Below are positions 1 to 24,596 of a stretch of 26,508 nt of DNA, piece by piece. Below the pieces are notes generated by a model. That model was not told the DNA's origin and did not search any database. It saw only the letters and a program-made list of their open reading frames with translations. Origin of the DNA: a virus. Lineage: Duplodnaviria; Caudoviricetes. Within the stretch, counting starts at the first letter, position 1, and each line of letters starts with the position of its first letter. The translations under genes were made by a program, and so were the position numbers. The stretch is from positions 1-26,508 of the IMG/VR virus record IMGVR_UViG_3300017722_003065; one strand, 5' to 3'.

Positions 1-1152
1 ATGCAATTGATGCCAGTGGCACAGAAAACAATGGGAGTGACCAACCCCAACGATCCTGATCAAAATATTCGTGCTGGAGTTCAGTTTCTTGGTCAGCAGT
101 TGACTCGCTGGAAAGATCCTGTGTTGGCTATGGCTGCTTACAACGCTGGCCCTGGCAACGTGGCAAAATATGGTGGAGTTCCACCTTTCAAACAAACACA
201 GAACTATGTGGCTGGGTACACACCTGATCCCATAAAGCCCATGCCTGCCGAAGGACCTGGTGTGCTGGACACCATAAAGAAAACCGGGTACGAATGGTTA
301 CGCAGTGCCGGAGATGCAATTGATCGTGCTGTGACTCCCAAGAATCTTGATCCTAAGACTCTGCAACCTTTGCAAGAAAAAGTGTATCCACCATACAAAG
401 GACAACCACCGGAGTCAGATCCGCGAATTGATCCCTTGCGTGATCGACTCAGCCGTGGTGAGAACCCCAAAAGCATTGAAGCAGACCTTAGAAAAAAAAT
501 AGCCGCTGATGCTGAGCGAGTTGAGTATGAACTAAGAGTTCAAAAGGCCATGCAACAACAGCTGGAAAAAGAAAAAGCCGAGCTAGAGGATAAACTAAAA
601 CAATATCCCAACGAAAAGGCCTGGCAGGAGCGATTGAAAGACGTTATAAATTACCTCACTGCTCCGCCCAAGCCATTCAAAGATGCGTTCAAGCAACCGC
701 CACCGCCAGACGTTGAGGTCTGGGATCGGCCTGTCAAAGAGCAAGACAATGAACCCACACCTCCACCGCAAGATGGTCCTAGCATACAAAAAGGTCTTAA
801 TTTTTTACGACAACTGCATGGCCTGTCAAAGATAACATCAGGTGGTGCTAGAGAAGAATTGATTGGAGCAGTGAGAGACTATGCACAGAATCAGGCACCG
901 CAAGTCTTGAAAAAATCTTTGCCGCAACCGCAAGACCCTGTGCAGGAAAATGCGTCAGGGTATATTCCCACAAAGAAACAAGCACGAGATCCTAGATATG
1001 CCATGGCGTTGACCGTGGATATCAAGCCAGGCCAGGTTGGCAAAGAAGCCAACAAGATGGCCTTGCAAACTGATTCACAGGGCCGGCCGGCACTGCTGAT
1101 GCCCAGCCTACAAAATCAACATCGTAAAGTTCAAGATAATGAATCTAGATGA
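1..1152 (+). CDS. 5'-truncated protein: soluble lytic transglycosylase (SLT-like) domain followed by Pro-rich/coiled-coil linker and a short C-terminal module
   Basis: Starts at MQLMP and contains AAYNAGPGNV..YGGVPPFKQTQNYV, typical SLT motifs. The catalytic Glu lies upstream of MQLMP in this family, so the gene begins before the window. The C-terminal segment follows a VQE site. Confidence 0.85.
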   Translation: MQLMPVAQKTMGVTNPNDPDQNIRAGVQFLGQQLTRWKDPVLAMAAYNAGPGNVAKYGGVPPFKQTQNYVAGYTPDPIKPMPAEGPGVLDTIKKTGYEWLRSAGDAIDRAVTPKNLDPKTLQPLQEKVYPPYKGQPPESDPRIDPLRDRLSRGENPKSIEADLRKKIAADAERVEYELRVQKAMQQQLEKEKAELEDKLKQYPNEKAWQERLKDVINYLTAPPKPFKDAFKQPPPPDVEVWDRPVKEQDNEPTPPPQDGPSIQKGLNFLRQLHGLSKITSGGAREELIGAVRDYAQNQAPQVLKKSLPQPQDPVQENASGYIPTKKQARDPRYAMALTVDIKPGQVGKEANKMALQTDSQGRPALLMPSLQNQHRKVQDNESR

Positions 1153-4100
1153 AATAGAAAGTTTCCCAAAGTTCAGTGCCGGCTCCACCAGTATGAATAG
1201 GCTGAGCCCGGACCCGTACGGCCGCTGGGGAGAAACTGAACAATCAGCAAACAAGAACCTTGAGAAAATAAGGAAGGCGGCCCGACAGTTGCCAGGTTCG
1301 CCGTACTTGTATACCGTCGTGCCCCAGCGATCAAATCAACGTCCTGCCTACTATATCTACGTTTTGACTCCGGATGGCGAAGTGATTGGCGGGCTTGACA
1401 TTGACGATCATGGCAAGATGTTTGAGGTTGATAAAATTCAAGTGTTGCCAAAGTATCAAGGACAAGGCCTAGGCATGTCGTTGTATGGCATAGCATTGTC
1501 TATTTTGAAAAAGCCCCTGGTAGCCGGCACAGCTCAAACTCCAGACTCTCAACGTGCCTGGCTTAGACTCAGTCAGATACCTGGTGTACAGGTCATGGGC
1601 CTGTTGCAAATGCAACGAGCTCAGGTGCCGTTCTACAAGTGGAAAGTCGAAGAGCTGGGCGCAAAACCTTGGACTAGAGTAGGCAACCATCAACTGTATC
1701 TGTTCCCAGTCACTGCTGGTAAAAAGCGAATGAAAGTCGCTCAACCCAAGGTACACAAAATTTATGGACGCGACACTGATGAACTCTACACCACAATGAT
1801 TGCATTTTACAATCAGCAGCCGGTGTTGGAGTCTGTGCAACCAACAGTTGTTCAAGAAAATCCCAGTGCTGAAATATCTCAGCACGAAAAATTAGATCGT
1901 GTGTTGATTCGGCTGTGTGAAATGCTGCAGGCTGCCGAGCATCCAAAATTTGGTATGGTTGCTGCTGCTGTGATTGACCCTGACAATTGCATTGTGGCTG
2001 CACTGAATCGCAGACTAAGCCAAGACAAAAATCTACATGCTGAACCTGCTGCTATGAGAGCCTACGAAAAACGCTACGGTACAATACCTGATGGATCTAT
2101 TATTGTCACAACTCTCAGCCCCTGTGCCGAGCCCATGGCCGAACGTCAGGGTCAGGCCTGTGTTGAGCGTATCAATCAAAGCAATGTACACAAAGTCTAT
2201 TGCGGCTACATGGATCACACACAGCATGAAGGTCTCACTGAACTGCGTGAATTCACCCTGGAAGAAACTGCCAATCCTGACATCAGACGTCTGTGCAAGA
2301 AATATGCAGATACGTTTTTAGATCCCACATACAGTATTGATATCCATGGCATTGAACAGCCTGGTCAAGTGAATAGTCTTGAAGCCTTGAGGGAAGCCAC
2401 CTTGGGCACATTGTATCCGCCCACAATTCTTGGCACACTTCAAATTGATGATATTGTGATTGCATTAAGCAAGCATCTTTATGATCGAGCAGAGGAGAGA
2501 AAAATTCCTCTTTCAAAAATAGAAAGTACGATACGAAGACTACGTCGTGTAAAGAGTAAAATGCGCCAGTATGAACCAGGGAGCAAGTTCTGGGTTTATA
2601 ATCCATATGAAGAAATTGCTCTAGGCTTTCAAGTGCTAGACAGCGGAGCATTTAAGGTGAACACTGTGATTGCTGAACCTCCGCATGCTCAAGGAGAATT
2701 ACCAATCGTTCGCATGTATGAAAACCTAACAGAATTATGGACACAGCCCTATGAACTAACTTCAAGGGTCACTGGTCCTGCCAACATGGAATACTATTTT
2801 GACACCAAAGACAATAGATCAGGTAGAATAGTTTTTGACAGTGTGCTTGACACCGATCAAGGTGGCTTACATGCTATACTGGTTATTGTGCATTTTTATA
2901 TTGATAACCTCTATCATACCAGCGGCAAAGGTGATGCTGTGGCAATATTTTCCACTGTTGTCGCTGCTTGTCGTGATTATCTGCGTAGGTACAAGCCGCC
3001 TGTGGTAGTGTTTGAAACTGATGATCCAAAGAAACGTAACTTATATGTAAAAATGGCCGGGATGTTTCCTGATTATGTGATTTATCCTTACCCACAGTGG
3101 GTGCAAGATCCCATTGTTGGTGATGAAATAGTTAATTCATTGATGGATGGCAATGCCAAAGATGCAGTGGTATTACACAGACGAAATTATGATCCAGAAA
3201 AAACTAGAATGTACATTGACGAGCAAGGTGTAGCGGGGGGTTTGGAAAACAATAGAATTAGTTTTCAGATACAAAAAGGCAAAAATAAATTTGCAACTAC
3301 TTTAAGTATTAGTAACAACCCAGTTGGAGTATACCAATATGACGCTGATACAGGTCGTAGCATAGCCGAGATTTATCCAGAATTCAAAGGCAAAGGATTA
3401 GGTAAATTGTTAGTTTTACATGCTATCTATACCGCAGCACAATTGGGATTAAATTTCCAAGAAGATGAATCAAGAACTGCCGAGTATGATAATGTGTTAG
3501 ACAGCTTGAGTAGCAACGGTTATATTGTAGATGACGATGGATATTGGTACGTAACTGGTGAGGGCGAACAATATCTACAACAATCAATGAAGCAAGGTGT
3601 GGCGGAAGGCTCTCCTAACTTTAATCGTGAATGGGACGAAGCAACCCGATATCCCGAGTTTGTTAACCTAGGTAAGGAAAAATGGATTGAACTTGTAAGC
3701 AAAGGTAAACCAGTAACAGTTACAAGAAAAAATGTTAACAAAATAAACAATACCGATGCCGCTGATCCTAAAAGTTTTAAACTACTAGACCCCGAAAAAC
3801 AAAAGCGAGCGTTGGCGCAACTTGCCAATGGCGATGTAGAAATGCCTATTGTCGCTAGATACAGCGACGGCTATTTAGAACTAATAGGCGGTAATACAAG
3901 ATTAACTGCCCAAATGGCAAAAGACGGTCAAGCTAAAGTTTGGTTATTTAATGTGCCAGAAGAATTAACGCAAGGTGTGGCGGAAGCGTTTGATCAACCT
4001 TACGCAACAGATTTAGAAAAATCCGAACATGATGATTATGATTCATTGGTACAATTGCCAGATGGTTCTCACTTGAGCATTATGTTTAATCACCAAGGTG

Positions 4101-5287
4101 ATGCCGAATATCAAGTTGAATTTTGGCGAGGGCCTAGCCAGGAAGTAACCGGTGAAGGTGATGCACAAAGAATATTTGCCACAGTTCTAAATACTATACA
4201 AAAGTTTATTAAAGAACACAATCCGTGGCGTTTGACATTTTCCGCAACCAAAGACGTTGCGCCTGGCCAAAACAGTGAAAGCCGAGCCAAATTATATAAT
4301 AGGTTAGTTGATCGCTATGCTGCTGCTTGGGGGTATGATGCTCTTATTAATGATCTTGGTGACCAAGTTGAATACGAGTTGACTAGATTAAAGCCGGGTA
4401 TAGCGGAAGGCTTGAATTTTGATGAAATCTACGGCAAGCATCTAAAAGTAACTGACAACAATGGTGATCCTCGCAAACCAGGATTTAGTCTTGTTACACC
4501 ACTCAATGGTGATTCTTGGAACTGGCGTGAGCGTCCTGAGTTTAAGGACTTAGTAAAACAAAAACTTAACGATCCAGGATTCCTTGGAGATCACAAATAT
4601 CAACAAATTATTGCCTCTATGTCAGGTAAACAATTTGATCCAACTAAACATATTGCTAAAGAAAACTTTGCTGATGGCAAGGTTAAAGGTAAAAGCCGAC
4701 CGGGTCGTGTCAAACGTGCAGGTGCAAGTTGCAACGGTTCTGTCACAGACCTACGACGCCGTGCCAAGAACGCATCAGGTGAAAAGGCCAAAATGTATCA
4801 CTGGTGTGCCAACATGAAGTCTGGTCGCAGCAAAAACAACGAGTCTCAGGCCACTGCCGCACCAATATCACCGCAGGCATGGATTGATCAAATCCATGAC
4901 ATGTATCCACAGACCTGGCAAAACAATCATGTCATGCCCATGGGCGGTGAAGGTGAAGATCAACAGTTTGCTATGTTTGAATTAGTGCCCAGTACAAGCA
5001 AAAAGAATGCTGTGGACATCAAGTGGTTCCAGGCCTATCCCTTGAGACAGGGCGTGGGCAGCCGTGCAATCAAAGAACTACAACAGCTGGCACGAGAGGC
5101 TGATATAACATTGACATTGTATCCCTGGGACAAAGGGCGAGTGAGTCAGGCCAAACTCATGAAGTTCTATCGTGGCCAAGGATTCCAGCCCACTGTCAAG
5201 GGCAGCAAGAACATGTTCTGGAGTCCGGAAAAAGCCCTGGAATCTGGTCTCATGGAGTCTTGGCAAGCGTTTCGAAATTCAAAATAA
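1139..5287 (+). CDS. 1382-aa modular polyprotein (about 10 modules: 3 GNAT-like, Zn-dependent deaminase, ParB-like, two paralogous unknown domains, basic Cys peptide); putative virion internal protein
   Basis: GNAT motif A at YQGQGLG, FKGKGLG and LRQGVG..FYRGQGF. Deaminase motifs LHAE and TLSPC..C. ParB-like PIV...LIGGNTRL. Modules are separated by x-x-E linkers (VLE, VQE, LRE, LTE, GLE, VAE twice, IAE, AKE, NNE). Confidence 0.8.
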   Translation: MNLDEIESFPKFSAGSTSMNRLSPDPYGRWGETEQSANKNLEKIRKAARQLPGSPYLYTVVPQRSNQRPAYYIYVLTPDGEVIGGLDIDDHGKMFEVDKIQVLPKYQGQGLGMSLYGIALSILKKPLVAGTAQTPDSQRAWLRLSQIPGVQVMGLLQMQRAQVPFYKWKVEELGAKPWTRVGNHQLYLFPVTAGKKRMKVAQPKVHKIYGRDTDELYTTMIAFYNQQPVLESVQPTVVQENPSAEISQHEKLDRVLIRLCEMLQAAEHPKFGMVAAAVIDPDNCIVAALNRRLSQDKNLHAEPAAMRAYEKRYGTIPDGSIIVTTLSPCAEPMAERQGQACVERINQSNVHKVYCGYMDHTQHEGLTELREFTLEETANPDIRRLCKKYADTFLDPTYSIDIHGIEQPGQVNSLEALREATLGTLYPPTILGTLQIDDIVIALSKHLYDRAEERKIPLSKIESTIRRLRRVKSKMRQYEPGSKFWVYNPYEEIALGFQVLDSGAFKVNTVIAEPPHAQGELPIVRMYENLTELWTQPYELTSRVTGPANMEYYFDTKDNRSGRIVFDSVLDTDQGGLHAILVIVHFYIDNLYHTSGKGDAVAIFSTVVAACRDYLRRYKPPVVVFETDDPKKRNLYVKMAGMFPDYVIYPYPQWVQDPIVGDEIVNSLMDGNAKDAVVLHRRNYDPEKTRMYIDEQGVAGGLENNRISFQIQKGKNKFATTLSISNNPVGVYQYDADTGRSIAEIYPEFKGKGLGKLLVLHAIYTAAQLGLNFQEDESRTAEYDNVLDSLSSNGYIVDDDGYWYVTGEGEQYLQQSMKQGVAEGSPNFNREWDEATRYPEFVNLGKEKWIELVSKGKPVTVTRKNVNKINNTDAADPKSFKLLDPEKQKRALAQLANGDVEMPIVARYSDGYLELIGGNTRLTAQMAKDGQAKVWLFNVPEELTQGVAEAFDQPYATDLEKSEHDDYDSLVQLPDGSHLSIMFNHQGDAEYQVEFWRGPSQEVTGEGDAQRIFATVLNTIQKFIKEHNPWRLTFSATKDVAPGQNSESRAKLYNRLVDRYAAAWGYDALINDLGDQVEYELTRLKPGIAEGLNFDEIYGKHLKVTDNNGDPRKPGFSLVTPLNGDSWNWRERPEFKDLVKQKLNDPGFLGDHKYQQIIASMSGKQFDPTKHIAKENFADGKVKGKSRPGRVKRAGASCNGSVTDLRRRAKNASGEKAKMYHWCANMKSGRSKNNESQATAAPISPQAWIDQIHDMYPQTWQNNHVMPMGGEGEDQQFAMFELVPSTSKKNAVDIKWFQAYPLRQGVGSRAIKELQQLAREADITLTLYPWDKGRVSQAKLMKFYRGQGFQPTVKGSKNMFWSPEKALESGLMESWQAFRNSK
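3224..4411 (+). repeat. Four dispersed in-frame ~17-nt direct repeats, consensus CAAGGTGTGGCGGAAGG (QGVAEG), at 3224, 3593, 3971 and 4394
   Basis: caaggtgtagcgggggg, caaggtgtggcggaagg, caaggtgtggcggaagc and ccgggtatagcggaagg, read directly. Related copies at 17240 (aaaggtgtggcagaagg) and 18347 (caaggtatggccgagg). Confidence 0.85.
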
Positions 5288-5290
5288 ATA
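5285..5290 (+). promoter_or_regulatory. T4-type late-promoter-like box TAAATA
   Basis: aaaaTAAATAtaag overlaps the upstream stop and lies 21 nt before the ATG at 5312. The same hexamer precedes several other genes in the window. Confidence 0.6.
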
Positions 5291-5311: not shown

Positions 5312-6622
5312 ATGAGACTTTTAGAATTTAAATTACTGGAATACGATCAAGCCAAAACTCTGCAGAACTTTGGCGAAAAAATGCTGGCTGCTGCAAAGAA
5401 AGATAGCACGTTGCCCGCAGACACACAAAAAGAACTGCGCAGTCCTGCAATGAGTGAGCAAAACCGCAACAACATTCTGCAGTTTTTGTTACAGCAACTG
5501 GAACAGGCCGACCCCACTCCCAACAAAAAATACACTCAGGCCATTGCCAAAATGTACGGCAATGGACAGAGCTCCATGGAAGATATTCTCAGTACTCTAG
5601 CAGATTATCTCACAAGGTTTGATCGTATGAATCGGCGCAAAAAGATTCCTGTGCCACGCAACGACTTCAATCGTTACACCAGTCTTGAAGACTTCATGGA
5701 TGTGGTAGACGAATACTATGATCCTGCCGAAGATGACGACACTGCTGGCGATGCTGAAAAGGGCAAATATCAAGAACTGTATCGTGACGCCGACTTGGTT
5801 GTGCTACAGCCCTTGGATCAAACTGCAGCCTGTTACTATGGACGAGGCACACGTTGGTGCACCGCAGCCACCAAAGGTATGAATTACTTTGACAACTATT
5901 CAAAGCGTGGACCGTTGTTTATCATCATTCCTCGCAAACCTGCTTACCCTGGCGAAAAGTATCAGTGGCAGTTTGAAAGCAGTTCGTTCATGAACGAACA
6001 AGATCGTCAGATTGGCGAAAAAGGCATGACAGAATTAGCAGCAAGATATCCGCAACTCAAGAACATACTCAAAGACTACGCAGAAAAATACACCATGGTG
6101 CCGTTGTTGACAGATGAATTTGTCAACACAATCAAAGATTATAGAGCCACTGCGCAATCACAAATGGCCAACTTCATTTCGCAGTACTCTGATCGTATTG
6201 CAGGTTTTGGACTCAAAACTCTAGAAGAATATGGCCTGGCGTTGCCGCCCCGGGTGGCTCAAGAAATTGCTGCCAACATACCTGATTATCTTGGTCAACT
6301 TGTTGACGCAATGGCAGCACCAGGTGGGTTCTGGGACAAAGTTCAAGAGCGTGTTGGCGACGAACGCAGCGAAGATCGCATTGAAACAATCCTCAGCACC
6401 GACCCCAAGATAAAGAAACTAACCGACAAGAGTACCGCAGCATTGATGCTCAAGGATGAATTAACTGGCAATGAGGCCAGCCGTGGCACATGGGACTGGC
6501 ACCAAGATTCTATAAAACATGTCACTGATTTGTTGTTGCGTGATCCAGTGTTTAGATTTATCATGAAACAAGTTCCCAAGATGTACAATAACATGCTTGC
6601 GGAGACTGGTCGTGCGGTTTAA
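5312..6622 (+). CDS. Hypothetical phage protein with CTS-like leader and a conserved-looking YG..TRWC domain (possibly PcfJ-like)
   Basis: 436-aa ORF with N-terminus MRLLEFKLLE and central AACYYGRGTRWCTAA...YFDNY...PLFII...KYQ. The family assignment is from memory and tentative. Confidence 0.7.
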   Translation: MRLLEFKLLEYDQAKTLQNFGEKMLAAAKKDSTLPADTQKELRSPAMSEQNRNNILQFLLQQLEQADPTPNKKYTQAIAKMYGNGQSSMEDILSTLADYLTRFDRMNRRKKIPVPRNDFNRYTSLEDFMDVVDEYYDPAEDDDTAGDAEKGKYQELYRDADLVVLQPLDQTAACYYGRGTRWCTAATKGMNYFDNYSKRGPLFIIIPRKPAYPGEKYQWQFESSSFMNEQDRQIGEKGMTELAARYPQLKNILKDYAEKYTMVPLLTDEFVNTIKDYRATAQSQMANFISQYSDRIAGFGLKTLEEYGLALPPRVAQEIAANIPDYLGQLVDAMAAPGGFWDKVQERVGDERSEDRIETILSTDPKIKKLTDKSTAALMLKDELTGNEASRGTWDWHQDSIKHVTDLLLRDPVFRFIMKQVPKMYNNMLAETGRAV

Positions 6623-9593
6623 CGAAATACAAGATCTTTCCAACGACGAGTTATTCGGCTATACAAATCTGGTGCGAGAGATTGCTAGATTTCTCTGGCG
6701 AGAAAATACGCCATCCAACAAGTGCATCTATCCGGAAAACATATCAAAATATCTACGGAACAACTCTCGGTTAGATAAACTCTGGCATGCTCAATCTCCA
6801 AACACGCAAGAGTTCATGGCCGATCAGATTTATGCAGCCATGTATCAAATGGAATTGGATTCATTCACGGAGTCTCAAGACAACAACAATGATGACATGT
6901 TTGGTGCGTCAATTGCCACATTGCCAAAAGTTGAATCTATTCTGGCAGCAGGCATACCACTGTACATCACCAACGTTGTAGCCAATGACAAAGACCGCCG
7001 GTGCAGAGTCAAAGAAATTCGGCACGAGGTGCGGACATTTGGGCAGATGAAACCATTTATCAGTTTTTGGCTTGATGATGCTCAAACCAGTGGCAGCATC
7101 CTGCCTTGGAATGACCGCGAATGGCAGTTGCAGCGCATTGAAGATGGGTTTGTGCTGTGGCCTCGCGATAAAAAACTACAAGAAACACACAGCGATGACG
7201 ATGACGTATTTGCTGAACGCAGTGTGAGTCAAAAGGTCATGAATTTGGTGCAAACTGGTCAGCCAGTTTACTATGCGGTTGACGTTGGCAAGCCCAGAGA
7301 TCAATGGCGCCTGCGCGAAATCATACGAGCAACTCCCACCAACTATACCTGGCTCAATCGCAGTGGCATGACCATTACTTTGGGCTATGATTCAATTCCT
7401 GTGAAATTGCAAAAACTTGACAATGGAAAAAATATACTTGTGCCATCAACACGCAACGTTGACGAAAGCGATACCAGCGACAACGAATTGTTTGGACCAC
7501 GAGCAGTGACTCGCATCAACTTACAACAGATGATAGATAATGATATACCAGTGTATCTAAGAATTAAAAGCAACGGTGAAGATGCTCAGATAACTGAGAT
7601 CAATCCGCCCATGGAAGGTTATCCAGGCTATTGGATGCGGTATCGATCTCCAACTCAGCGGGGCATGCTGGCCTGGCGTGATCGTCACTGGGCGGTTGAA
7701 TCCTACCGTGATGGAGTAATCTTACAACCACTGCCTGGAGCCCGAATGTACGAGAGCGAATCTGACCAAGACCTGTTTGGCACTGATGATCTTAGATCTA
7801 GACTGCATGCACGAATACATGCTGCATGGAAAAAAATTACATACACACTTGACGAGCTTGGCCCTGAGGCAATATTTCAAAGTGCCAAAATGTTTAGCAA
7901 CTTGTACTACAAGTGGGATGATGGCGAACACGATCCCATGGCAGTGATGGCATTCCGAGAATCCCCTGACAAAGTGTTGCAGGCTGTGGCAGAACTAGAA
8001 AAGATTGCCAAGGATCCTTACGATTATCTTGAACATCTCAGTGAAAACAACGATGACGACATGTTTAGCAGGCCCGGTCGGTTGGCCAAGGTCATAAACA
8101 CTGAACTCACTACATTGCGTGATCCCTATGTACGCACTGTTGAAATTGTGCGAGACCTAGCTAAAAACAAATTCAAAGTTAAAACAAGAGTCAGTGCAAA
8201 ATCTCCACGTGCCACACGAGGGCAGGCCACCTTTTGGTTTGGAGAATATGCAACTAAGCCCGGAGAGGATTCGCCAAAAACTCCACCGGTGGCACTGCAA
8301 ATAAAAGCAGAGCTAGAAAGTCAAGGATTTGAGTGCAAGTTCACCGACTCCGGCTGGCTCAGTGTCAAAGTTCCACCAATGTTCTCAAATGTTCTTGGTG
8401 AAGATGATGACAATGAATTGTTTGGCGGACGCAAACTCACACCCGGATATTTGAAAGAGCTGGTTAACACCACAGGACTCTGGTTGGAAATAAGCGGCGG
8501 CGAACAGTTTCGTGTGCTGGGAGTGGGACGTTTCAGCGAATTTCCCGACGAAATAGCATTTAAAATGTCAACAAGTTATGGCGAAGGTTTTACAGCATCG
8601 TATCCACCTGACATGTTGCGACTTGATCTTACTCATCAAGGAACACCAGTGTTGCACTATGGAACCCTGGCCGAAGCTTCCGACGATGATATGTTCTCCT
8701 CACAATCAAAAATTCAAACTCTCCATTTGACCCGGATCTTTCGTGCTGTGGAAGATCTTGTGACCCTGACCATTGTCAATGTCTATCCCCCCGAAGATCC
8801 TCGCGATGACACCATAAATGAACTCAACAAATTCATGACACGTCACAATGTATCCTTTAAGATTGTAGAACTGGCTCTGCAGAGAATAGCAAGTTTTGAC
8901 AGTTTTGACGAGTTCTACAATGAGATGCTGCACATATATAAACAACACTACAAAGATGAACTCGGCGAAGTCAAGGAGCCAGAATCCGATGAAGAGCTAT
9001 TCACACCTGAAAAAACGTTGATTACTCGAGGGCATGCTGTGGCCAATGTGTTGAGAAAAATAAGTTTTGATACCATGAGCGAAGTCATGAAGATTAGGCC
9101 CCAAGACATGGAGTCAATTCGTGAAAAAATATATTTGGCTACATTAAATTACGAGCGTGGAGATATACTTGAAGGTAATGCACAGATTTACACACTGACT
9201 CCTCGTGCATTTTCTTACATAACATGGAGTCTTGAGCAAGCAGGACTCAACAGCTATGCACGTCGTATCTCAGAACAAAGAGATCAGTATCAGCAGGATG
9301 ATATGTTCGCTGATCAGAGTCGACTCACGCAGAATCGTTTCATTGGTAAGATTATAATCAAGCTGGCCGAAGAAATTTACAATGATCCTTTGAGTGAGCA
9401 AAGTGACAAAGAAGATGCCAAGGATTTACAGACAGTGGGCCGAGTGTTCAGCACCCAAGGCACTCGCCAAGGGCTGACATTGATACGTCAGTGGGCTGAC
9501 AACGGAGATACTGTCATCTATGACAATGTTTTAAGTGTGATGTGGCAACATGGCATTGACATTGGTGAACTAGAACAGCAATACCAGATCTAG
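6612..9593 (+). CDS. ~993-aa polyprotein of ten ~80-120-aa modules, each headed by an acidic DD(E/D)(L/M)F tag
   Basis: The GTG at 6612 has a GGAG at 6601-6604 and gives MRFNEI, so it is preferred over the TTG at 6597. Motifs: NDELFG, NDDMFG, DDDVFA, DNELFG, DQDLFG, DDDMFS, DNELFG, DDDMFS, DEELFT, QDDMFA. Confidence 0.8.
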   Translation: MRFNEIQDLSNDELFGYTNLVREIARFLWRENTPSNKCIYPENISKYLRNNSRLDKLWHAQSPNTQEFMADQIYAAMYQMELDSFTESQDNNNDDMFGASIATLPKVESILAAGIPLYITNVVANDKDRRCRVKEIRHEVRTFGQMKPFISFWLDDAQTSGSILPWNDREWQLQRIEDGFVLWPRDKKLQETHSDDDDVFAERSVSQKVMNLVQTGQPVYYAVDVGKPRDQWRLREIIRATPTNYTWLNRSGMTITLGYDSIPVKLQKLDNGKNILVPSTRNVDESDTSDNELFGPRAVTRINLQQMIDNDIPVYLRIKSNGEDAQITEINPPMEGYPGYWMRYRSPTQRGMLAWRDRHWAVESYRDGVILQPLPGARMYESESDQDLFGTDDLRSRLHARIHAAWKKITYTLDELGPEAIFQSAKMFSNLYYKWDDGEHDPMAVMAFRESPDKVLQAVAELEKIAKDPYDYLEHLSENNDDDMFSRPGRLAKVINTELTTLRDPYVRTVEIVRDLAKNKFKVKTRVSAKSPRATRGQATFWFGEYATKPGEDSPKTPPVALQIKAELESQGFECKFTDSGWLSVKVPPMFSNVLGEDDDNELFGGRKLTPGYLKELVNTTGLWLEISGGEQFRVLGVGRFSEFPDEIAFKMSTSYGEGFTASYPPDMLRLDLTHQGTPVLHYGTLAEASDDDMFSSQSKIQTLHLTRIFRAVEDLVTLTIVNVYPPEDPRDDTINELNKFMTRHNVSFKIVELALQRIASFDSFDEFYNEMLHIYKQHYKDELGEVKEPESDEELFTPEKTLITRGHAVANVLRKISFDTMSEVMKIRPQDMESIREKIYLATLNYERGDILEGNAQIYTLTPRAFSYITWSLEQAGLNSYARRISEQRDQYQQDDMFADQSRLTQNRFIGKIIIKLAEEIYNDPLSEQSDKEDAKDLQTVGRVFSTQGTRQGLTLIRQWADNGDTVIYDNVLSVMWQHGIDIGELEQQYQI
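7464..7511 (+). repeat. 48-nt dispersed repeat, copy 1 (copy 2 at 18071-18118)
   Basis: gaaagcgataccagcgacaacgaattgtttggaccacgagcagtgact versus gaaagcaataccaatgacgacgaattgtttggaccgcgagcagtgact, 43/48 identical by manual alignment. Confidence 0.9.
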
Positions 9594-9620
9594 ACTCGCA
9601 AGAATAGAACGGAAAACGCT

Positions 9621-10901
9621 ATGCAAAATAAACCATTAAAAGAAAACGATGACGACATGTTTGGCGGTGCTGCACCTGCCAAGCCCGGCGGCCGCCGTGC
9701 CCCAGACAAAGATCTATTTGGGACTCCTAAAAGATTAATCATTGCCAAGGTACTACGTGCTCATGCGCAAGCCAGCATCAAAGAGATTGCTCAAGCCCAG
9801 CGTCGTGCGCAGGCCGGCAAGGCCAAAAGCTATGAGGATGCTGAATATCTTGGTTGGCTACAACAATTGGCCAATATAATGACAAAAGTCGCTGACGTGT
9901 TCCAATTCAAAGGCACAGCGCCGGGATGGCTTGCATATCACCGAGCCTTGCGTAAGTTTGACGCCGAGGGAGTTGAAGAAGACATTGCCAGTGACCTTGA
10001 AGATGCAGGCATTGATGTAGATGAACTCATTGAATATGAAACCGCTGTGGCTCAAGTGTATCAGGACATGCGCGAATCTACCAACAACTATCTGAGAGAA
10101 TTTGTTGAGTGGACCAACCTTATATTCACCGAAGCCGACAAAAAGAAACAGACACAGACAAAAACAAAAACTGATCAGCCGGGCCTAGATCCCAATATGT
10201 TTACACCAAAGATGGATCAGCCCTTGACACGTCAAGAACCTGAACAGCCAAAAGATCAACAGCCAAGTCAGCCTAGAGATGTGCGCCGAGCATCAGCACA
10301 ACGTACAAAGCAGGCCACTGCTGGCATCACGCCCACTGATCAAATGAGCAACATGTTGGGCAAATTGCGCAACATAGAGATTGATACAGACCTGCCAGAC
10401 TATCCTGACACTGAACCCGAAACCATGCCCTCGGTAGATGTCAACACACGCAACTTGCCTGCAGTGGCATCGGCCAATCTTCAAGCCGCAGGTCTACAGA
10501 ATCCCGAGTTCTATCAAGTGGCAGCACTGCCTGGCAACATGGCAGCAATGATCCGACAACTGGGACGCAATCTGTTTGGATCACTCACAGCAACACCAAC
10601 CAATAGAATTCATGTTGTGGCCAACCTGGGTGGTCAAGGTCCCAACACCACACAAGAAGTCAATGCTGTGGCAGGATATCTACGCGAGTACGGCACAGAC
10701 CTAGGCCCTGGTGATGTTGATTTCAATCAAGTCATGCCAGGTTATCAGGCTGACACGCACATGTATTCAGCAGGTGGCATCCGTTGGATGCTGGTCAAGG
10801 ACTTTGCTGGTCAGTATATCTACTGTTGGCCTGAGTCTGATTCAGTGGACTATGATCCACAAAAGAAATTAAGCTCAGATCCACAAAAAAGATTGCGATG
10901 A
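9621..10901 (+). CDS. Hypothetical modular protein with DDDMFG tag; putative virion internal protein
   Basis: 426-aa ORF beginning MQNKPLKE-NDDDMFG, with internal MRE/FTE sites, a Q/P-rich linker and a globular C-terminal domain. Confidence 0.75.
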   Translation: MQNKPLKENDDDMFGGAAPAKPGGRRAPDKDLFGTPKRLIIAKVLRAHAQASIKEIAQAQRRAQAGKAKSYEDAEYLGWLQQLANIMTKVADVFQFKGTAPGWLAYHRALRKFDAEGVEEDIASDLEDAGIDVDELIEYETAVAQVYQDMRESTNNYLREFVEWTNLIFTEADKKKQTQTKTKTDQPGLDPNMFTPKMDQPLTRQEPEQPKDQQPSQPRDVRRASAQRTKQATAGITPTDQMSNMLGKLRNIEIDTDLPDYPDTEPETMPSVDVNTRNLPAVASANLQAAGLQNPEFYQVAALPGNMAAMIRQLGRNLFGSLTATPTNRIHVVANLGGQGPNTTQEVNAVAGYLREYGTDLGPGDVDFNQVMPGYQADTHMYSAGGIRWMLVKDFAGQYIYCWPESDSVDYDPQKKLSSDPQKRLR

Positions 10902-14210: not shown

Positions 14211-14507
14211 ATGGGTCGCTATTTTGTCAAAGTTGAATGTGATGTATTCTGTGATTGGCACAGTGAAAATCCACGCTACAGAGTGTTTGTGAATGACGAG
14301 TTGTTTGTTGAAAGAACTTGGATTTGGCAGCATCATTATCTGCGTGAATGTATTCAGATGCAGGTAAACCCTGGCAAATATGCCATAAAGATTGAACTGG
14401 TGGAACCTGCTCCCAATGCCACACTGACCTGGAGCAACACACAAATAACAACAGGCCCGGCCACCATCAAAAGCGGTTGGTTAATAAAGGTACATGATGA
14501 GAGCTAG
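14211..14507 (+). CDS. Hypothetical protein (98 aa, beta-rich)
   Basis: The ATG at 14211 follows TAAATA and avoids a long overlap with the upstream gene. Sequence MGRYFVKVECDV...PRYRVFVNDELFVERTW. Confidence 0.7.
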   Translation: MGRYFVKVECDVFCDWHSENPRYRVFVNDELFVERTWIWQHHYLRECIQMQVNPGKYAIKIELVEPAPNATLTWSNTQITTGPATIKSGWLIKVHDES

Positions 14508-14679
14508 AGAATTTGTGACAGAAACCACCACTGCCGGCGCAATTGCCACGGTAGATGCCCCTTTGGGCGGTGTCCAGCACAGAAATGCTGGATCGTTCTT
14601 TGGCGGTAAATATACCAATGAACCATTCGCTAATACTCCGCAATGGATGAGAAAAGGAAAACGCCGTGCTCGCAGATGA
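14497..14679 (+). CDS. Small putative virion internal protein with CTS-like leader
   Basis: MRAREFVTE-TTTAGAIATV with a basic C-terminus. AAGG lies upstream and the gene is coupled to both neighbours. The start may be 14494. Confidence 0.7.
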   Translation: MRAREFVTETTTAGAIATVDAPLGGVQHRNAGSFFGGKYTNEPFANTPQWMRKGKRRARR

Positions 14680-15109
14680 TTTAAAAGTTTTATTGGCCAG
14701 TAGTTATGCTTTTGCTGTCAAAGCGCAGTACTTTCACTGGAATGTTGAAGGTCCGGACTTTGCACAATTGCATGAGTTCTTTGAGAAGCTTTATTTAGAA
14801 GTCAACGACAATGCTGTTGATCGCACGGCTGAATTTATTCGCAGCTTGGATGAATACACCCCAGGTAGTTTTGAAAGATTCAGTGAACTAAGCATCATTG
14901 CCGGGCAGACTAAAATTCCACGTGCTCGTATCATGTTGGAAGAACTCTATACCAGCAATGCGGCAATGATTGACCTGTTGAATCAATGCTTTGAATCGGC
15001 TCAAAACGAACGTCAGGAAGGCATTGCCAATTTCATTGCTGAACGCCTAGATGCGCACGGCAAACATGGCTGGATGCTGCGCAGTTTCTTAAAGGATGCA
15101 CGAGCATGA
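14666..15109 (+). CDS. dps: Dps family ferritin-like DNA-protection protein
   Basis: FHWNVEGPDFAQLHEFFEKLY..D..AE..R and C-terminal KHGWMLRS. AAGGA lies upstream of the GTG start. Confidence 0.92.
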   Translation: MLADDLKVLLASSYAFAVKAQYFHWNVEGPDFAQLHEFFEKLYLEVNDNAVDRTAEFIRSLDEYTPGSFERFSELSIIAGQTKIPRARIMLEELYTSNAAMIDLLNQCFESAQNERQEGIANFIAERLDAHGKHGWMLRSFLKDARA

Positions 15110-16071: not shown

Positions 16072-16643
16072 GCGACGATATAAAAAATATGTTGGACAAA
16101 CTTAGGTTGCTGGAAGGCACAGTTACCTCGCCAGCATTGCCCAAGCGAGGGTTGAACAAACAACAGAAGTCAGTGCCTGAGTTGCCGGCGCTGTTCAAGC
16201 CCAAAGACATATCACCGGTGTTGGGCGGCAAGAAGGATCCACGGCACCCCACTGCAGATTACTTTGTAGGTGGTGAAAGCAAAGAAATGTCCGAGGATCT
16301 GTTGAGCAATGTGCGTCGCACTTTAGATGATTACCTGCAAGACATTGAACAAAAATTAGAAAAACAAAAAGATCGTGATTTAATCAGCAAAGCCGGACAA
16401 GACATACAGAAAGATCCACTGCGTGATTTATTACCAGTTAAAACCATTGCCACCGACGATGGCAAAGACATGCGCATACATGGCAATGAGGATGATGGGT
16501 TTGTTATTCGTATTCGTGATCGGCCAATGAAGGCTCGATTCCGCACACTTGATGAAGCAGAAATGGCCTGTGAACTTTTTGCAGCACATCGTCGTAATCG
16601 CAACATGGAAGCTCAAGCACAAGACTACGTGGAAGAATCATGA
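16068..16643 (+). CDS. Hypothetical protein, putative virion internal protein
   Basis: ATGA overlap at 16068-16071. Leader MSDDIKNMLDKLRLLE. Confidence 0.7.
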   Translation: MSDDIKNMLDKLRLLEGTVTSPALPKRGLNKQQKSVPELPALFKPKDISPVLGGKKDPRHPTADYFVGGESKEMSEDLLSNVRRTLDDYLQDIEQKLEKQKDRDLISKAGQDIQKDPLRDLLPVKTIATDDGKDMRIHGNEDDGFVIRIRDRPMKARFRTLDEAEMACELFAAHRRNRNMEAQAQDYVEES

Positions 16644-19078
16644 AAATCAATGACTTTAAAACTGCAAAGAAGCCTCGCGTCAAAGAAGCCATTGATCCTG
16701 AGTTTGCTGCCAAAAAACGTGGCATGGGATACTTTGATTACAGCACGTTGAAGCGCGAAGACTTCAACGATGACGACTGGTATGTATGGGATCCAGAGCA
16801 ACAACAGTTCGTGGCCAGCTACGGTGCCCGGAGTTCGACTGCCTTGGATTTTAGAATGCGAGAAAATTTCGGTGGCACATATAAAATGCCCGATGGCAGA
16901 ATAGCCATGCGCGGAATGCGGGCTAAATTTATGCCCGGCATTGAAAGCCGAAATAACGACAATCTTGACGAAGCCGCCAAGACTCTGCAGATGATCGAGG
17001 GCTGGGAAGAATTCAAAGAAACTGCTCCGGCATTGAAAGAAGTTCGCCGCCGTCGCCAAACCAACGAGAGTATAGAAGAAGCCACAGGTGATCCAAAGTT
17101 TGACAAGATGCTCAAAGGTATCACAGGTAAAAGACAAGTAGCCAAACAACAAAAAGCAGATACCAAACAACAGGCACGTGATGCTTTTGGTAGTATGTTT
17201 GGTGGAGGTAATCCTGCTGATAAGCTCAGCATCAGAAACAAAGGTGTGGCAGAAGGCAAGAAAAAGAGAAAGAAAAAATCTTCAAGGGCATTGAGCAGAT
17301 ATTTCTTCCCAGGCTACGGCTATTATGGCGGCGGTGAATCTGGTGAGGGTGGCGGCGAAGGCGGTGGTGAAAGCATCAACCCACGCCAGGCAGAAGATTC
17401 TGATCTAGATGAAAATCTAAGAAATTGGTTCAAAGAAAAGTGGGTGAGATTTGGCCCTGATGGCAAGATTCGCGGCGACTGTGCCAGAGGCAGTGAATCC
17501 GAAGGCAAGCCTAAATGTTTACCACAGTCCAAAGCACATGCTCTGGGCAAAAAAGGCCGTGCATCGGCTGCAGCCCGCAAGCGCAGAGAAGATCCCAACG
17601 CCAATCGTACAGGTGCTGCAATAAATGTTGCCACCAAAAAGAAAACCAACGAAGTTCAACTTGACGAGAAATGCTGGGATACCTACAAACAGGTGGGCAT
17701 GAAGAAAAAAGGCAGTCGCATGGTTCCCAACTGTGTGCCAAAAGAAAGCCAAGAAAAAACACAGCAGTGTCCTGAGTGTGGTGGTTCAATGTATCCAGAC
17801 ACAATGCTAAATGAAAAGAAAGATGCCTGTTACTACAAAGTAAAAGCATCGGCCAAGGTATGGCCCAGTGCTTATGCATCAGGACGTCTAGTACAGTGTC
17901 GCAAACGCGGTGCTGCCAACTATGGCAAGAAAAATGAAAGTGTAGCAGAAGACACGCTGGATGAAAAGTGGAGTAAGAAATACAAAAGCAGCATTGACTG
18001 CAACAACCCCAAAGGATTTAGTCAACGAGCACATTGTGCTGGCCGTCGGAAAAATGAAGATGTTACGGAAGAAAGCAATACCAATGACGACGAATTGTTT
18101 GGACCGCGAGCAGTGACTGGTACATTATTAGATAGACAGGCTCTAAACGTTGCCAAAAAACTGACTACAGATAAGAACCTGGCAAAGTTAAATAATATGG
18201 CCAATGATAGCACCATTTATCGTGCGTTAGAACGTTATTTTTCTAAAAACAATATTTCCACAAGAATCTTTAATCGTGTCGCTGCTATTGTGTTTAAAAA
18301 ACTGGACAAGTATGGTCGTAGATTATCCACTGACCCAAGAATACAACAAGGTATGGCCGAGGATGACAAAGACAATGCCACAACAGCCAAGAAGCCCGGC
18401 TTTATAGACAACGTCAAACAAGGGGCCGAAGACTACAAAGATCTCTGGATGATGGGCGCAACTGGTCGCACACCTGAACGTTGGAAAAACTCAGCTGAAA
18501 AAGCAGCCGAGCGCGGATCCGCACCAGGTCCACAGTTTCCTTTGAAAGAAGGTCGTATGAAGGAAATTGCCATTGAATTTCAAGACTACAAACATCTACC
18601 TGACATGGCTTTTCAAAGCCGATACAAAATCAGCAAACGTGACTGGTGGAACAAGCACGCCAAACTGGTACAGGGATCAGGCCTAGGCATTGGCATGGAC
18701 GAAGCCCGTGGCAAAGTCAAAGCCAAGATTGTTTATCCCCGGCCCACTAGAGCTGAACGTGAACACGACCGTATTCGCAAAGAACGAGGGTTGCCCAATC
18801 CCAGCCACTACAAAACACTGGGCGATAAACTGGATAAAGAGCTTGCAGCCTTGCGCGGTGATGATGTCACCGAGGCTCACGTTGATGCTGATGAACTGGT
18901 TGATGTCTATATCAAAGGGCAACACAAAGGCCGCAGTATTAGAATCCCAGTGGCAAAAAACTTTCCCAACAAACACGTTGATTTACTGACACAGCGTCTC
19001 AAATCCCGTGGCATAAACCCGCATGCCATTGTGTATGGGCCAACCACAAGAAAAGTTGCCGAAGACACTGATCAATGA
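16640..19078 (+). CDS. 812-aa polyprotein of short, mostly basic modules separated by x-x-E sites; putative virion internal protein
   Basis: More than 15 sites such as VKE, LDE (four times), IEE, VAE (three times), LNE, MAE, LKE, MDE and VTE. Several K/R-rich two-Cys modules. Contains both GVAEG and DDELFG linkers. Confidence 0.8.
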   Translation: MKINDFKTAKKPRVKEAIDPEFAAKKRGMGYFDYSTLKREDFNDDDWYVWDPEQQQFVASYGARSSTALDFRMRENFGGTYKMPDGRIAMRGMRAKFMPGIESRNNDNLDEAAKTLQMIEGWEEFKETAPALKEVRRRRQTNESIEEATGDPKFDKMLKGITGKRQVAKQQKADTKQQARDAFGSMFGGGNPADKLSIRNKGVAEGKKKRKKKSSRALSRYFFPGYGYYGGGESGEGGGEGGGESINPRQAEDSDLDENLRNWFKEKWVRFGPDGKIRGDCARGSESEGKPKCLPQSKAHALGKKGRASAAARKRREDPNANRTGAAINVATKKKTNEVQLDEKCWDTYKQVGMKKKGSRMVPNCVPKESQEKTQQCPECGGSMYPDTMLNEKKDACYYKVKASAKVWPSAYASGRLVQCRKRGAANYGKKNESVAEDTLDEKWSKKYKSSIDCNNPKGFSQRAHCAGRRKNEDVTEESNTNDDELFGPRAVTGTLLDRQALNVAKKLTTDKNLAKLNNMANDSTIYRALERYFSKNNISTRIFNRVAAIVFKKLDKYGRRLSTDPRIQQGMAEDDKDNATTAKKPGFIDNVKQGAEDYKDLWMMGATGRTPERWKNSAEKAAERGSAPGPQFPLKEGRMKEIAIEFQDYKHLPDMAFQSRYKISKRDWWNKHAKLVQGSGLGIGMDEARGKVKAKIVYPRPTRAEREHDRIRKERGLPNPSHYKTLGDKLDKELAALRGDDVTEAHVDADELVDVYIKGQHKGRSIRIPVAKNFPNKHVDLLTQRLKSRGINPHAIVYGPTTRKVAEDTDQ
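18071..18118 (+). repeat. 48-nt dispersed repeat, copy 2 (copy 1 at 7464-7511)
   Basis: Encodes ESNTNDDELFGPRAVT versus ESDTSDNELFGPRAVT. The flanks are unrelated. Confidence 0.9.
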
Positions 19079-20222: not shown

Positions 20223-22889
20223 ATGAGCTATATAGACGCATTGTTTGATCGTGAACGCGATCGTGTTCATGTAGTTGAACGTCTCAACGGCGAACGCCGA
20301 TATCAAGAATATCCGGCCAACTACATTTTTTATTATGATGACCCGCGTGGAAAGTTTCAAAGCATCTATGGCACACCCGTGTCTAGATTTTCCACACGCA
20401 GCAACAAGGAGTTTCGCAAGGAACTGCGTATTCAAAACGGCAAACGATTCTATGAGTCTGATATCAATCCGGTGTTTCGTTGTCTAGCAGACAACTACAA
20501 AGGACAGGATGCACCTCGTGTACATGCTGCATTTTTTGACATTGAGGTTGACTTTGATCCTGAAAAAGGCTACAGTCGGCCCGATGATCCTTTCAACGCC
20601 ATCACTGCCATCAGTGTCTATTTGAGCTGGCTTGACCAACTGGTGACCATGGCAGTGCCGCCGCGACACATGAGTTGGGAAACAGCACAAGAACAAGTGG
20701 CCGAGTTTGACAACTGTTATTTGTTTCGCAGTGAAGCAGAAATGCTGTCGATGTTTTTAGATCTCATTGACGATGCAGATGTGTTGAGTGGCTGGAACAG
20801 TGAAGGTTATGACATTCCCTACACAGTAAATCGTGTGACAAGAGTTCTCAGCAAAGACGACACACGCAAGTTTTGCCTCTGGGGGCAATTCCCAAAGTCC
20901 CGAACATTTGAACGCTTTGGTGCAGAGAACATTACATTTGATCTTGTGGGTCGTGTACACATGGACTATATGCAACTGTATCGCAAGTACACCTATGAAG
21001 AACGACACAGTTACAGCCTTGATGCTATTCTTGAATATGAAGAGCTAGGATCAAAGACCAAGTATGAAGGCACGTTGGATCAACTGTACAATCAAGATTT
21101 CAAAACATTTATTGAATACAATCGACAAGACGTCAATGGTCTTGCTGCCATTGATAAAAAGCTGAGATTTCTAGATTTGGCCAATACCCTGGCACATGAA
21201 AATACTGTGTTGCTACAGACCACCATGGGTGCTGTGGCAGTTACAGAACAGGCAATCATCAACGAAGCGCATGAACGTGGTATGGTAGTACCTAACCGTA
21301 GAGAAAGGCTCACAGATGAAGAGACACAAGCCGCAGGTGCCTACGTTGCTTATCCCAAAAAAGGTCTTCACGACTGGGTCGGATCAATTGACATTAACTC
21401 GCTGTACCCTTCGGCAATCCGTGCTCTTAACATGGCGCCCGAAACAATCATTGGGCAGCTGAGACCACACATGACCGACCACTACATTGCAGAAAAAACG
21501 CAAGGTGGTGCAAGTTTTGCAGCGGCCTGGGAAGGGCTGTTTGGTACATTAGAATACACGGCTGTGATGGAACAACAGCGTGGCACTGAAATTACCATCG
21601 ACTGGGAAAGTGGTGAGGAAACTGTGCATTCAGGAGCCGAGGTCTGGCGCATGATGTTTGACTCAAATCAGCCCTGGATGATCAGCGCCAATGGTACTAT
21701 ATTCACATATGAGTCTGAAGGAGTGATACCTGGACTACTCAAACGCTGGTATGCTGAACGTAAAGAAATGCAAAAGAAAGCACATGAGTTTGAAGGGCAA
21801 GACAATGCACAATTTGAATACTGGGACAAACGGCAGTTGGTTAAGAAAATTAATCTCAATAGTTTGTATGGTGCTATTCTCAATCCTGGTTGTAGATTTT
21901 TTGATAAACGAATTGGTCAATCAACCACGCTCACTGGACGAGCCATTGCAAAACACATGGATGCATACGTCAACGAATGTCTCACAGGAAAGTATGATCA
22001 CACCGGTGAAACTATCATCTACGGTGACACAGACTCATGTTATTTTTCAGCATGGCCAGTGCTGAAAAATGAAGTTGAAGAAGGCCGCATGGAATGGAAC
22101 AAAGACACATGCATTGCTTTGTACAATGGCATTGCTGATCAGGTCAATGATAGTTTCCCAGGTTTCATGGAAACAGCATTTCATGTGCCGCGTGACATGG
22201 GCGAAGTGATACGTGGCGGTCGTGAACTTGTGGCTATCAAAGGCCTGTTTATCACAAAGAAACGCTATGCCGTGTTGTATATTGACAAAGAGAACAAACG
22301 CACAGATGTCAATGGAAAACCTGGCAAAGTCAAGGTCATGGGCTTGGATCTCAAACGTAGCGATACCCCCAAGGTAATCCAAGATTTTTTACTGGATGTG
22401 CTCAATGATGTGTTGACTGGCAGCAGTCGTGATCACATAGTTGAAAAGATCAAAGAGTTCAAATACCTGTTCAAAGAACGACCAGGCTGGGAGAAAGGTT
22501 CGCCCAAACGTGTAAATAATCTCACCAAGTATGCCAAAGCCGAAGAGCGTGAGGGTAAAACCAACATGCCTGGACATGTACGTGCTGCAATGAATTGGAA
22601 CATCATGCGGCGCATGCACTCCGACAACTACAGTATGCAAATCATGGACGGACAAAAAGTCATTGTATGCAAACTCAAAGGCAACGCCCTAGGCTGGACA
22701 TCAATTGCCTATCCCACTGATGAGTTGCATTTGCCCACATGGTTCAAAGAACTACCATTTGATGACAGTGAAATGGAGTCCACCGTGATTGGAGCTAAGA
22801 TAGATAATTTATTGGGTGTGTTGGACTGGGATCTTACTGCTGCCACCAACACAGAAAATACATTTCAAAGTTTGTTTACGTTTGAATGA
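20223..22889 (+). CDS. polB: Family B DNA polymerase with 3'-5' exonuclease (T4 gp43-like)
   Basis: ExoI FDIEV, ExoII GWNSEGYDIPY, ExoIII YNRQD, motif A DINSLYPS, motif B KKINLNSLYG, motif C YGDTDS, and KKRYA. Confidence 0.97.
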   Translation: MSYIDALFDRERDRVHVVERLNGERRYQEYPANYIFYYDDPRGKFQSIYGTPVSRFSTRSNKEFRKELRIQNGKRFYESDINPVFRCLADNYKGQDAPRVHAAFFDIEVDFDPEKGYSRPDDPFNAITAISVYLSWLDQLVTMAVPPRHMSWETAQEQVAEFDNCYLFRSEAEMLSMFLDLIDDADVLSGWNSEGYDIPYTVNRVTRVLSKDDTRKFCLWGQFPKSRTFERFGAENITFDLVGRVHMDYMQLYRKYTYEERHSYSLDAILEYEELGSKTKYEGTLDQLYNQDFKTFIEYNRQDVNGLAAIDKKLRFLDLANTLAHENTVLLQTTMGAVAVTEQAIINEAHERGMVVPNRRERLTDEETQAAGAYVAYPKKGLHDWVGSIDINSLYPSAIRALNMAPETIIGQLRPHMTDHYIAEKTQGGASFAAAWEGLFGTLEYTAVMEQQRGTEITIDWESGEETVHSGAEVWRMMFDSNQPWMISANGTIFTYESEGVIPGLLKRWYAERKEMQKKAHEFEGQDNAQFEYWDKRQLVKKINLNSLYGAILNPGCRFFDKRIGQSTTLTGRAIAKHMDAYVNECLTGKYDHTGETIIYGDTDSCYFSAWPVLKNEVEEGRMEWNKDTCIALYNGIADQVNDSFPGFMETAFHVPRDMGEVIRGGRELVAIKGLFITKKRYAVLYIDKENKRTDVNGKPGKVKVMGLDLKRSDTPKVIQDFLLDVLNDVLTGSSRDHIVEKIKEFKYLFKERPGWEKGSPKRVNNLTKYAKAEEREGKTNMPGHVRAAMNWNIMRRMHSDNYSMQIMDGQKVIVCKLKGNALGWTSIAYPTDELHLPTWFKELPFDDSEMESTVIGAKIDNLLGVLDWDLTAATNTENTFQSLFTFE

Positions 22890-23873: not shown

Positions 23874-24596
23874 ATGAAAGATCATTTACTTGATTTAGTG
23901 GAACACACCCATGACCTTGGATGCATTGCTTTGATCAAGATCACGGGCACTGACAAAGAAACAACTATCGTAGGCTGTGCTGAAAAACGAGAGGCAGTGC
24001 TGCAAGCGCGATATCATACACCAGTGGCAGAGTTCATTGGTACATTTGGTATGCCTAACTTGGGGAAGTTAAAAATTCTTTTAAACTTGCCTGAGTACAA
24101 AGAAAATGCAAAAATTACCTTGACAAAAGATCAGGCCGGTGCCACAGATGGCTTGCTGTTTGAAAACACAGCCGGGGATTTTCACAACAACTTTAGATTC
24201 ATGTCAGCAGAAATTGTCAACGGAATTCTCAAGGACATGAAGTTCAACGAACCCACATGGCATGTGGAATTCGAGCCCAGTGTCGCTGGTATCCAAAAAC
24301 TCAAGATGCAGGCACAGGCCAATGCCGAAGAAACATTGTTTAATGCCAAGACAGAAAACGGTGATTTAAAGTTCTTCTTTGGTGATCATTCAACACATGC
24401 TGGTAACTTTGTGTTTCATCCTGGCGTGTCAGGTCAAATCAAACGCCCATGGGCATGGCCAGTCAAAGAAGTAATTTCAATAATGAACTTAACTGGAGAC
24501 AAGACTATGCGTATCAGTGATGATGGTGCTGCTGATATTAGAGTTGACTCTGGCATTGCTGTTTATCGTTACATTATACCTGCACAAACAAAATGA
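23874..24596 (+). CDS. Probable DNA polymerase sliding clamp (gp45/PCNA-like)
   Basis: 240 aa with a two-fold alternating helix/strand pattern ending in ..IRVDSGIAVYRYIIPA, near PolB. GGAG SD. Function is inferred from size, pattern and context only. Confidence 0.55.
   Translation: MKDHLLDLVEHTHDLGCIALIKITGTDKETTIVGCAEKREAVLQARYHTPVAEFIGTFGMPNLGKLKILLNLPEYKENAKITLTKDQAGATDGLLFENTAGDFHNNFRFMSAEIVNGILKDMKFNEPTWHVEFEPSVAGIQKLKMQAQANAEETLFNAKTENGDLKFFFGDHSTHAGNFVFHPGVSGQIKRPWAWPVKEVISIMNLTGDKTMRISDDGAADIRVDSGIAVYRYIIPAQTK

Follow-up and report, generated by a model that had tools for sequence, protein, structure and literature searches.

Gene g4 of a T4-like jumbo phage codes for a chain of ten small modules, most of them unrelated, each of which is headed by a putative cleavage site of the form [LIVMF]-x-E and a short acidic tag. 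The window, by which we mean the whole stretch of DNA analysed here, is a 26.5-kb piece of this phage; in the family B polymerase, identity is 50% with Sinorhizobium phage Phosso and 42-44% with Rak2/GAP32-like phages. In our reading, to which we give a probability of about 0.45, the g4 chain would be loaded into the prohead, where a T4-type head protease would cleave it to give ten proteins of 10-13 kDa. The tags, now N-terminal, would be retained and would dock all of the products on one shared receptor, likeliest a partner from the same cassette. The modules would be a library of small, interchangeable binders directed at the host, comparable to T4 IPI; since they belong to no known family, this effector role rests on analogy. 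g4 sits between g3 and g5, and the features of the window that bear on this proposal are as follows.

5285..5290, plus strand: TAAATA, resembling a T4 late promoter, 21 nt 5' of g3 and overlapping the stop codon of the upstream gene; presumed promoter function
5312..6622, plus strand: g3, 436 aa, GTRWCTA-type protein with an MRLLE start; candidate tag receptor
6612..9593, plus strand: g4, 993-aa polyprotein of ten tagged modules, with no Pfam, PHROG or NCBIfam family
6627..6872, plus strand: predicted fragment 1, helical, 82 aa, after FNE; tag NDELF at 6642
6873..7754, plus strand: predicted fragments 2-4, three paralogous beta-rich modules, after FTE, LQE and VDE; tags at 6888, 7197 and 7479
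7755..8045, plus strand: predicted fragment 5, after MYE; tag DQDLF at 7764; its family also occurs with an EGEVLQFP head
8046..8402, plus strand: predicted fragment 6, the most widespread module, after LSE; tag DDDMF at 8052
8403..9590, plus strand: predicted fragments 7-10, after LGE, LAE, VKE and ISE; tags at 8409, 8682, 8988 and 9294
9621..10901, plus strand: g5, 426 aa, with tags at 9648 and 9705, one helical module and a conserved C-terminal domain (about 10350-10898)
10185..10202, plus strand: LDPNMF motif of g5, where untagged sisters read [FL]-D-[DNH]-L-F; possible source of the tag, by presumed ancestry
18086..18118, plus strand: tag inside g16 (16640-19078); copied tag block

The ten tags of g4 lie in one ORF, whose start codon is GTG at 6612; close homologues open there with MRFNEI or MRLNEI. 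An earlier note on this DNA had placed the tags at about these positions, the third of which starts at 7197, and its spacing of about 250-360 nt agrees with the measured 246-357 nt. Its wording of the tag, E..DD(E/D)(L/M)F, needs a small correction at tag 3, which reads DDDVF; the g4 consensus is D-D-[DE]-[LM]-F-[GSA]. Every tag stands shortly behind an [LIVMF]-x-E site: the nine sites named earlier, from FTE to ISE, are all present, and FNE before tag 1 can be added. The further tags reported near 9645, 9710 and 18085 are real and start at 9648, 9705 and 18086, the one at 9705 without a preceding E-site. Another match to the pattern, at 14292 in an unrelated gene, looks like chance. The predicted fragments of g4 are 82-119 aa long (9.8-13.4 kDa), and the modules are mostly acidic. 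Across 291 tags, the residue in front is S, D, N or T in 247 and the residue after the Phe is G in 170, with G, S or A conserved at the latter position. These flanks resemble helix-cap preferences. The tag is probably a docking motif that forms one short helical turn.

Shuffling rules out a chance origin of the g4 tags: 100,000 shuffles gave a mean of 0.055 tags and a maximum of 3, compared with the 9 in g4 that match the slightly narrower pattern used in this test, and because that pattern was chosen after the data had been seen, the evidence from homologues carries more weight. A first search returned 29 homologues of g4, all of them tagged, with 2-13 tags each. Fifteen are close, two of which are the window's protein itself; in the other 14 the similarity is limited to module 6, with module 5 in addition in one case. 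A profile search added further relatives, the longest being a chain of 1,750 aa that carries 13 tags or more, and many relatives have one or two tags per protein. When the tagged proteins are cut at their tags, the pieces fall into 42 BLAST families, some remotely related, that occur in shuffled order and number. By pattern, 459 of the 481 module-family hits are tagged, a share that is inflated because the module and homologue sets were gathered with tagged queries. The other 22 hits comprise 3 misprojected partial hits, 15 tag variants and 4 copies with a different head. The latter are members of the module-5 family (P0053, P0055, P0056 and P0058) and begin with AE-GEVLQFPK in place of the tag, possibly a second address motif. 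Thus the motif is conserved in homologues (29 of 29), and it is not a buried part of a repeating fold, the explanation that the earlier note had held against its own idea: it heads unrelated families, 42 in all, and one of these also occurs under another head. The feature is real and strongly selected. Two further architectures were seen. In P0043 and P0131-P0136 the tagged array and g5 domain are fused to a C-terminal PF00182 chitinase/lysozyme-like domain, and P0059, in which an IscS-like N-terminus precedes the end of module 6 and a tag, is probably an assembly chimera.

The tag has moved as a unit. The g16 tag and tag 4 of g4 are identical at 31 of 33 nt, yet the modules behind them are unrelated, which shows that the tag block was copied. 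One could imagine on this basis that the tag is a relic of duplication, kept as a recombination handle for module shuffling and having no protein partner, and the shuffled module order and the lean of the tags' Leu codons to CTG/TTG in two genomes would fit. We regard this as most improbable, because most tag pairs in the window share only 10-23 of 33 nt, the codons vary synonymously while L/M-F is held, and the tag persists in 42 families and over a deep clade. A DNA-level repeat was also rejected: the copies at the tags are short and 65-94% identical, with synonymous variation.

The link between tag and cleavage site is tight. For 123 of 127 non-redundant internal tags, the preceding 12 residues contain an [ILVMF]-x-E site, against 18.7% of random 12-aa windows. 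T4 gp21 cleaves behind L/I-X-E, and N-terminal leaders, 10 residues in length, send cargo to the T4 head, according to the accessible part of PMC9026906. In the relatives, the P3 residues of the 123 sites are L (49), I (34), V (22), M (11) and F (7), so that 83 are strict L/I-X-E; in the window, 5 of 10 sites are strict and all 10 fit [LIVMF]-x-E. Sites followed by a small or acidic P1' are rarer than expected inside the module bodies of 42 family representatives (14 vs 24.7, p about 0.011), and other ORFs of G005, a complete sister genome of 355 kb, have no such depletion. Plain L/I-x-E is not depleted in the module bodies (31 vs 34.9), and for g4 alone the depletion is not significant (2 vs 5.1, p 0.11). 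The head genes lie outside the window, and we therefore infer the protease from G005, which encodes a T4-type portal, an S77 protease (PF03420) and gp23, and whose capsid leader contains LLE and LAE sites. g4 opens with MRFNE (5 aa) and its relatives with MRYNEIIE, MRYSELIE or MKIKNIILE, which resemble targeting sequences, a likeness and nothing further. TAAATA precedes 66 of the 298 gene starts of G005, portal and tail sheath among them, against a background of 0.35% of windows inside ORFs, where stop codons are uncontrolled. Five contigs of 151-212 nt (0-2 differences) from three RNA runs overlap g4; as DNA carry-over is uncontrolled in these runs, they were not counted. On these sequence signals, late expression, packaging and cutting of the g4 chain are likely. 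The anatomy described in the earlier note, in which every cut would leave a fragment beginning with the same tag, holds as far as a site precedes 123 of 127 tags, the cutting itself being a prediction.

If the chain stayed uncut, its tags could jointly stick it to a lattice or scaffold in multivalent fashion. Their even spacing would suit such a role, as would their number, which reaches 13 or more per chain, but the site before 123 of 127 tags would then go unexplained, and many relatives have too few tags, only one or two per protein; we think this very unlikely. A rather unlikely alternative that accepts the cutting is a tag for head assembly only, which guides the protease to its sites or retains and threads the fragments during maturation and ejection. 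The tight coupling of tag and site speaks for it, as do the weak sites, such as FTE or MYE, that a tag could license, and the placing of the acidic linker in modelled segments of low confidence that are probably flexible. Against it, the capsid leader, the scaffold and many junctions within the tagged genes have cut-like sites without tags, the tag at 9705 has no site, and two related genomes, G006 and G009, have no site-linked tags. Moreover, the gap between site and tag varies from 0 to 9 residues (291 tags), which is unlike a fixed subsite.

Other genes around the cassette deserve mention. Two window regions, 1139-5287 and 16640-19078, encode polyproteins with VAE/LxE-like sites in which nearly every junction is without a tag, and the first contains GNAT, deaminase and DUF6934 domains. 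A Dps/ferritin-like gene (14666-15109) stands amid leader-bearing genes. The 509-aa ORF at 24593-26122 has no family match; we presume that it resembles a tRNA-guanine transglycosylase/DpdA-type enzyme, which would in turn suggest modified DNA. In three loci ClpP is encoded upstream of the tagged cassette, at a distance of a few genes (L007:660-1250, L002:3601-4191 and L005:2186-2776, the last for L005/L006). It was not seen in the window or in L004, and a link between ClpP and the cassette was dropped.

The distribution of the tag is narrow. In G005, 17 of 19 tags fall in four adjacent genes, and shuffled proteomes give 0-6. G006 (99% complete) is nearer to the window than G005 is, in both its polymerase (79% vs 72%) and its putative clamp (70% vs 57%), and it has no site-linked tag, g3 match, g5 domain or module family. 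G009 has g5 and a distant g3 and no site-linked tags. Among 20 loci with a g5 domain, 14 lack tags in the flanking sequence retrieved. In a quick tree of 95 g5 domains, the tagged proteins (69) and those from untagged loci (6 rows) fall on opposite sides of one branch with an SH-aLRT of 99, the 20 domains without a tag of their own being left uncounted. The tree and the tag-free closer relative indicate that the tag arose once, in an accessory cassette. The earlier note had proposed a shared sorting or ejection signal. A general packaging, sorting or ejection signal is unlikely, because the tag is confined to one cassette and is absent from many cut-like junctions and from the closer relative G006.

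We favour instead the docking of the cut products on a shared receptor, and the cassette itself offers two candidate partners. In the window and in L002, L004, L005, L007 and L037, the gene directly upstream of the array is g3, and its C-terminal domain of about 190 aa is found only in tagged loci; it is absent from all 13 untagged loci that have the N-terminal part of g3 (L054-L066). Of the six tagged loci that the profile of this domain matches, five were used to build it, and since tag and domain share one origin, their co-occurrence counts as a single event. This clade-specific domain is our best guess at the receptor from the sequences, albeit a doubtful one. The second candidate is the g5 domain, to which the tagged array is fused in several relatives. 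As sole receptor it is weakened by the 14 loci that have it without tags. Near the start of g5, 5 of 6 untagged sister loci compared have [FL]-D-[DNH]-L-F (FDDLF, LDDLF or FDNLF); at the same spot in the tagged clade, LDPNMF occurs in 41 and FDIPF in 27 of 118 g5-domain proteins. This suggests that the tag may derive from the g5 motif or share its receptor. A distant g5 homologue (L067:7878-8492) lies within a portal-protease-scaffold-like head cluster, a placement that suggests a head role for the g5 domain. It is possible, though we would not count on it, that the clade copied a docking motif from the conserved head protein g5 onto dozens of unrelated mini-domains as an address label, and that the injected binders plug into one hub, which would be either g3, delivered alongside, or host machinery, for example the beta-clamp.

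The hub could also lie outside the cassette. Docking after injection on a host hub, either in the SSB-tail pocket or, as a DLF/DMF ligand lacking Gln, in the pocket of the beta-clamp, is in our view improbable. The tag has the L/M-F anchor, and [DE]-[LM]-F-G fits positions 3-5 of QLDLF/QADMF; the portion of PMC11139829 at hand reports that beta-clamp motifs favour Gln first, that Gln is not strictly needed, that LF alone can anchor and that acidic flanks help. The FDIPF form of the g5 motif also counts for a host hub. However, Gln occupies position 1 in only 2 of 285 tags and Leu position 2 in 3 of 285, and a change of Gln to Glu greatly lowers affinity (same portion of PMC11139829). SSB pockets use the C-terminal carboxylate, as far as the available text of PMC5872125 goes, and none of 169 proteins ends in the tag.

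Alternatively, the tag could bind the phage's own sliding clamp and bring the modules to replicating phage DNA. The putative clamp is a 240-aa gene assigned by synteny with the Phosso annotation. Among 80 loci examined (L068-L147), the 79 readable ones conserve a polymerase C-terminus T-F-x-[STN]-L-F-x-F (22860-22889 in the window), which on this conservation is likely the clamp-binding motif of the clade. Its L-F is shared by the tag, the g5 motifs of untagged sister phages have a similar ending, and T4 clamp partners use LDFL in the part of PMC9690074 available. Yet 78 of the 79 loci have F as the anchor of the polymerase motif and the remaining one has L, while at this position the tag has D in 247 of 285, M in 2 (both inside a module) and never F; in addition, the clamp is a core gene and the tag is accessory. 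We hold this to be very improbable. The earlier suggestion that the tag docks diverse domains on a single hub remains the best reading, but each hub motif compared, those of the beta-clamp, phage clamp and SSB tail, differs from the tag at a defining position.

Family searches and structure models add little detail. g4 has no convincing family in Pfam, PHROG, NCBIfam or PADLOC, and none of 37 single modules scores above a curated family cut-off. Neither g4 nor g5 has a match among 50,697 phage records, and g5 has none in cellular genomes, which gives no hint of the host. The AlphaFold model of g4 (12 sequences) is weak, with a pLDDT of 45.6 and most of the chain poorly modelled, and a fold search with it was discarded as meaningless. 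All ten tags lie in segments under pLDDT 50, outside the better-predicted modules 1, 6, 9 and 10; this weak model is mild evidence that the tags stand outside the folded modules. No clear fold emerged from a model of the g5 domain (pLDDT 49; best Z 5.7), and the ESM Atlas held no usable match for module 6 or the g5 domain.

If our reading is correct, a second tag retained on every product would be a new addressing layer, since the T4-type leader is discarded. One shared hub would serve a large library of small phage proteins, here 42 families, none of them annotated, and the modules would be candidate counter-defence or host take-over factors. The tag, of 5-6 residues, is transplantable, so that a peptide pull-down could trace the hub. 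With the site-plus-tag pattern, unannotated ORFs of jumbo phages can also be divided into domains.

Several known systems resemble g4 in part. Like the clamp-binding motifs (QL[SD]LF; LDFL in T4) and the SSB tail DDDIPF, the tag is short and acidic and ends in L/M-F; unlike them, it is without the Gln/Leu of the beta-clamp motif, the upstream aromatic anchor of the phage clamp motif and the free C-terminus of the SSB tail. The ejection proteins of SPN3US and phiKZ are also internal proteins cut by a jumbo-phage head protease, some of them multiply, at A-X-E. In SPN3US, 13 of 14 sites remove N-terminal propeptides, and the accessible part of PMC10052503 describes no repeated tag on mature fragments. 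Our search of the literature, mostly at abstract level and largely outside subscription journals, found no phage head polyprotein with a repeated tag that is retained. The polyvalent proteins of phages (Iyer et al. 2017, PMC5512222) likewise hold many shuffled domains in one chain, and g4 falls within their range of 2-15 domains; processing and delivery at infection have been proposed for them, as stated in the part of that paper available. Unlike them, g4 has no metallopeptidase or other known catalytic domain that we could find, and its junctions have a fixed site and tag for a protease in trans, a linker that this part of the paper does not report. Polyvalent-protein domains (MPTase, ART, GNAT, LPD) do not score above cut-off in g4 or the 37 modules, while the neighbouring polyprotein at 1139-5287 has GNAT and deaminase domains.

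The closest parallel is with the T4 internal proteins IPI-III and Alt. As with them (PMC9026906, in the part available), the start of g4 looks like a short leader that ends in x-x-E, its putative sites are L/I-x-E-like, its predicted products have about 10-13 kDa and its locus is a variable accessory one, and a gp21-family protease is encoded in the sister genome G005. In contrast to the T4 internal proteins, which are single proteins that, in the part of the literature available, lose their tag on cutting, g4 comprises ten modules with a second tag on every predicted product, and its site is broader, with V, M and F also at P3. By analogy, g4 would work like the T4 internal-protein system in polyprotein form, while strictly not being a member of it.
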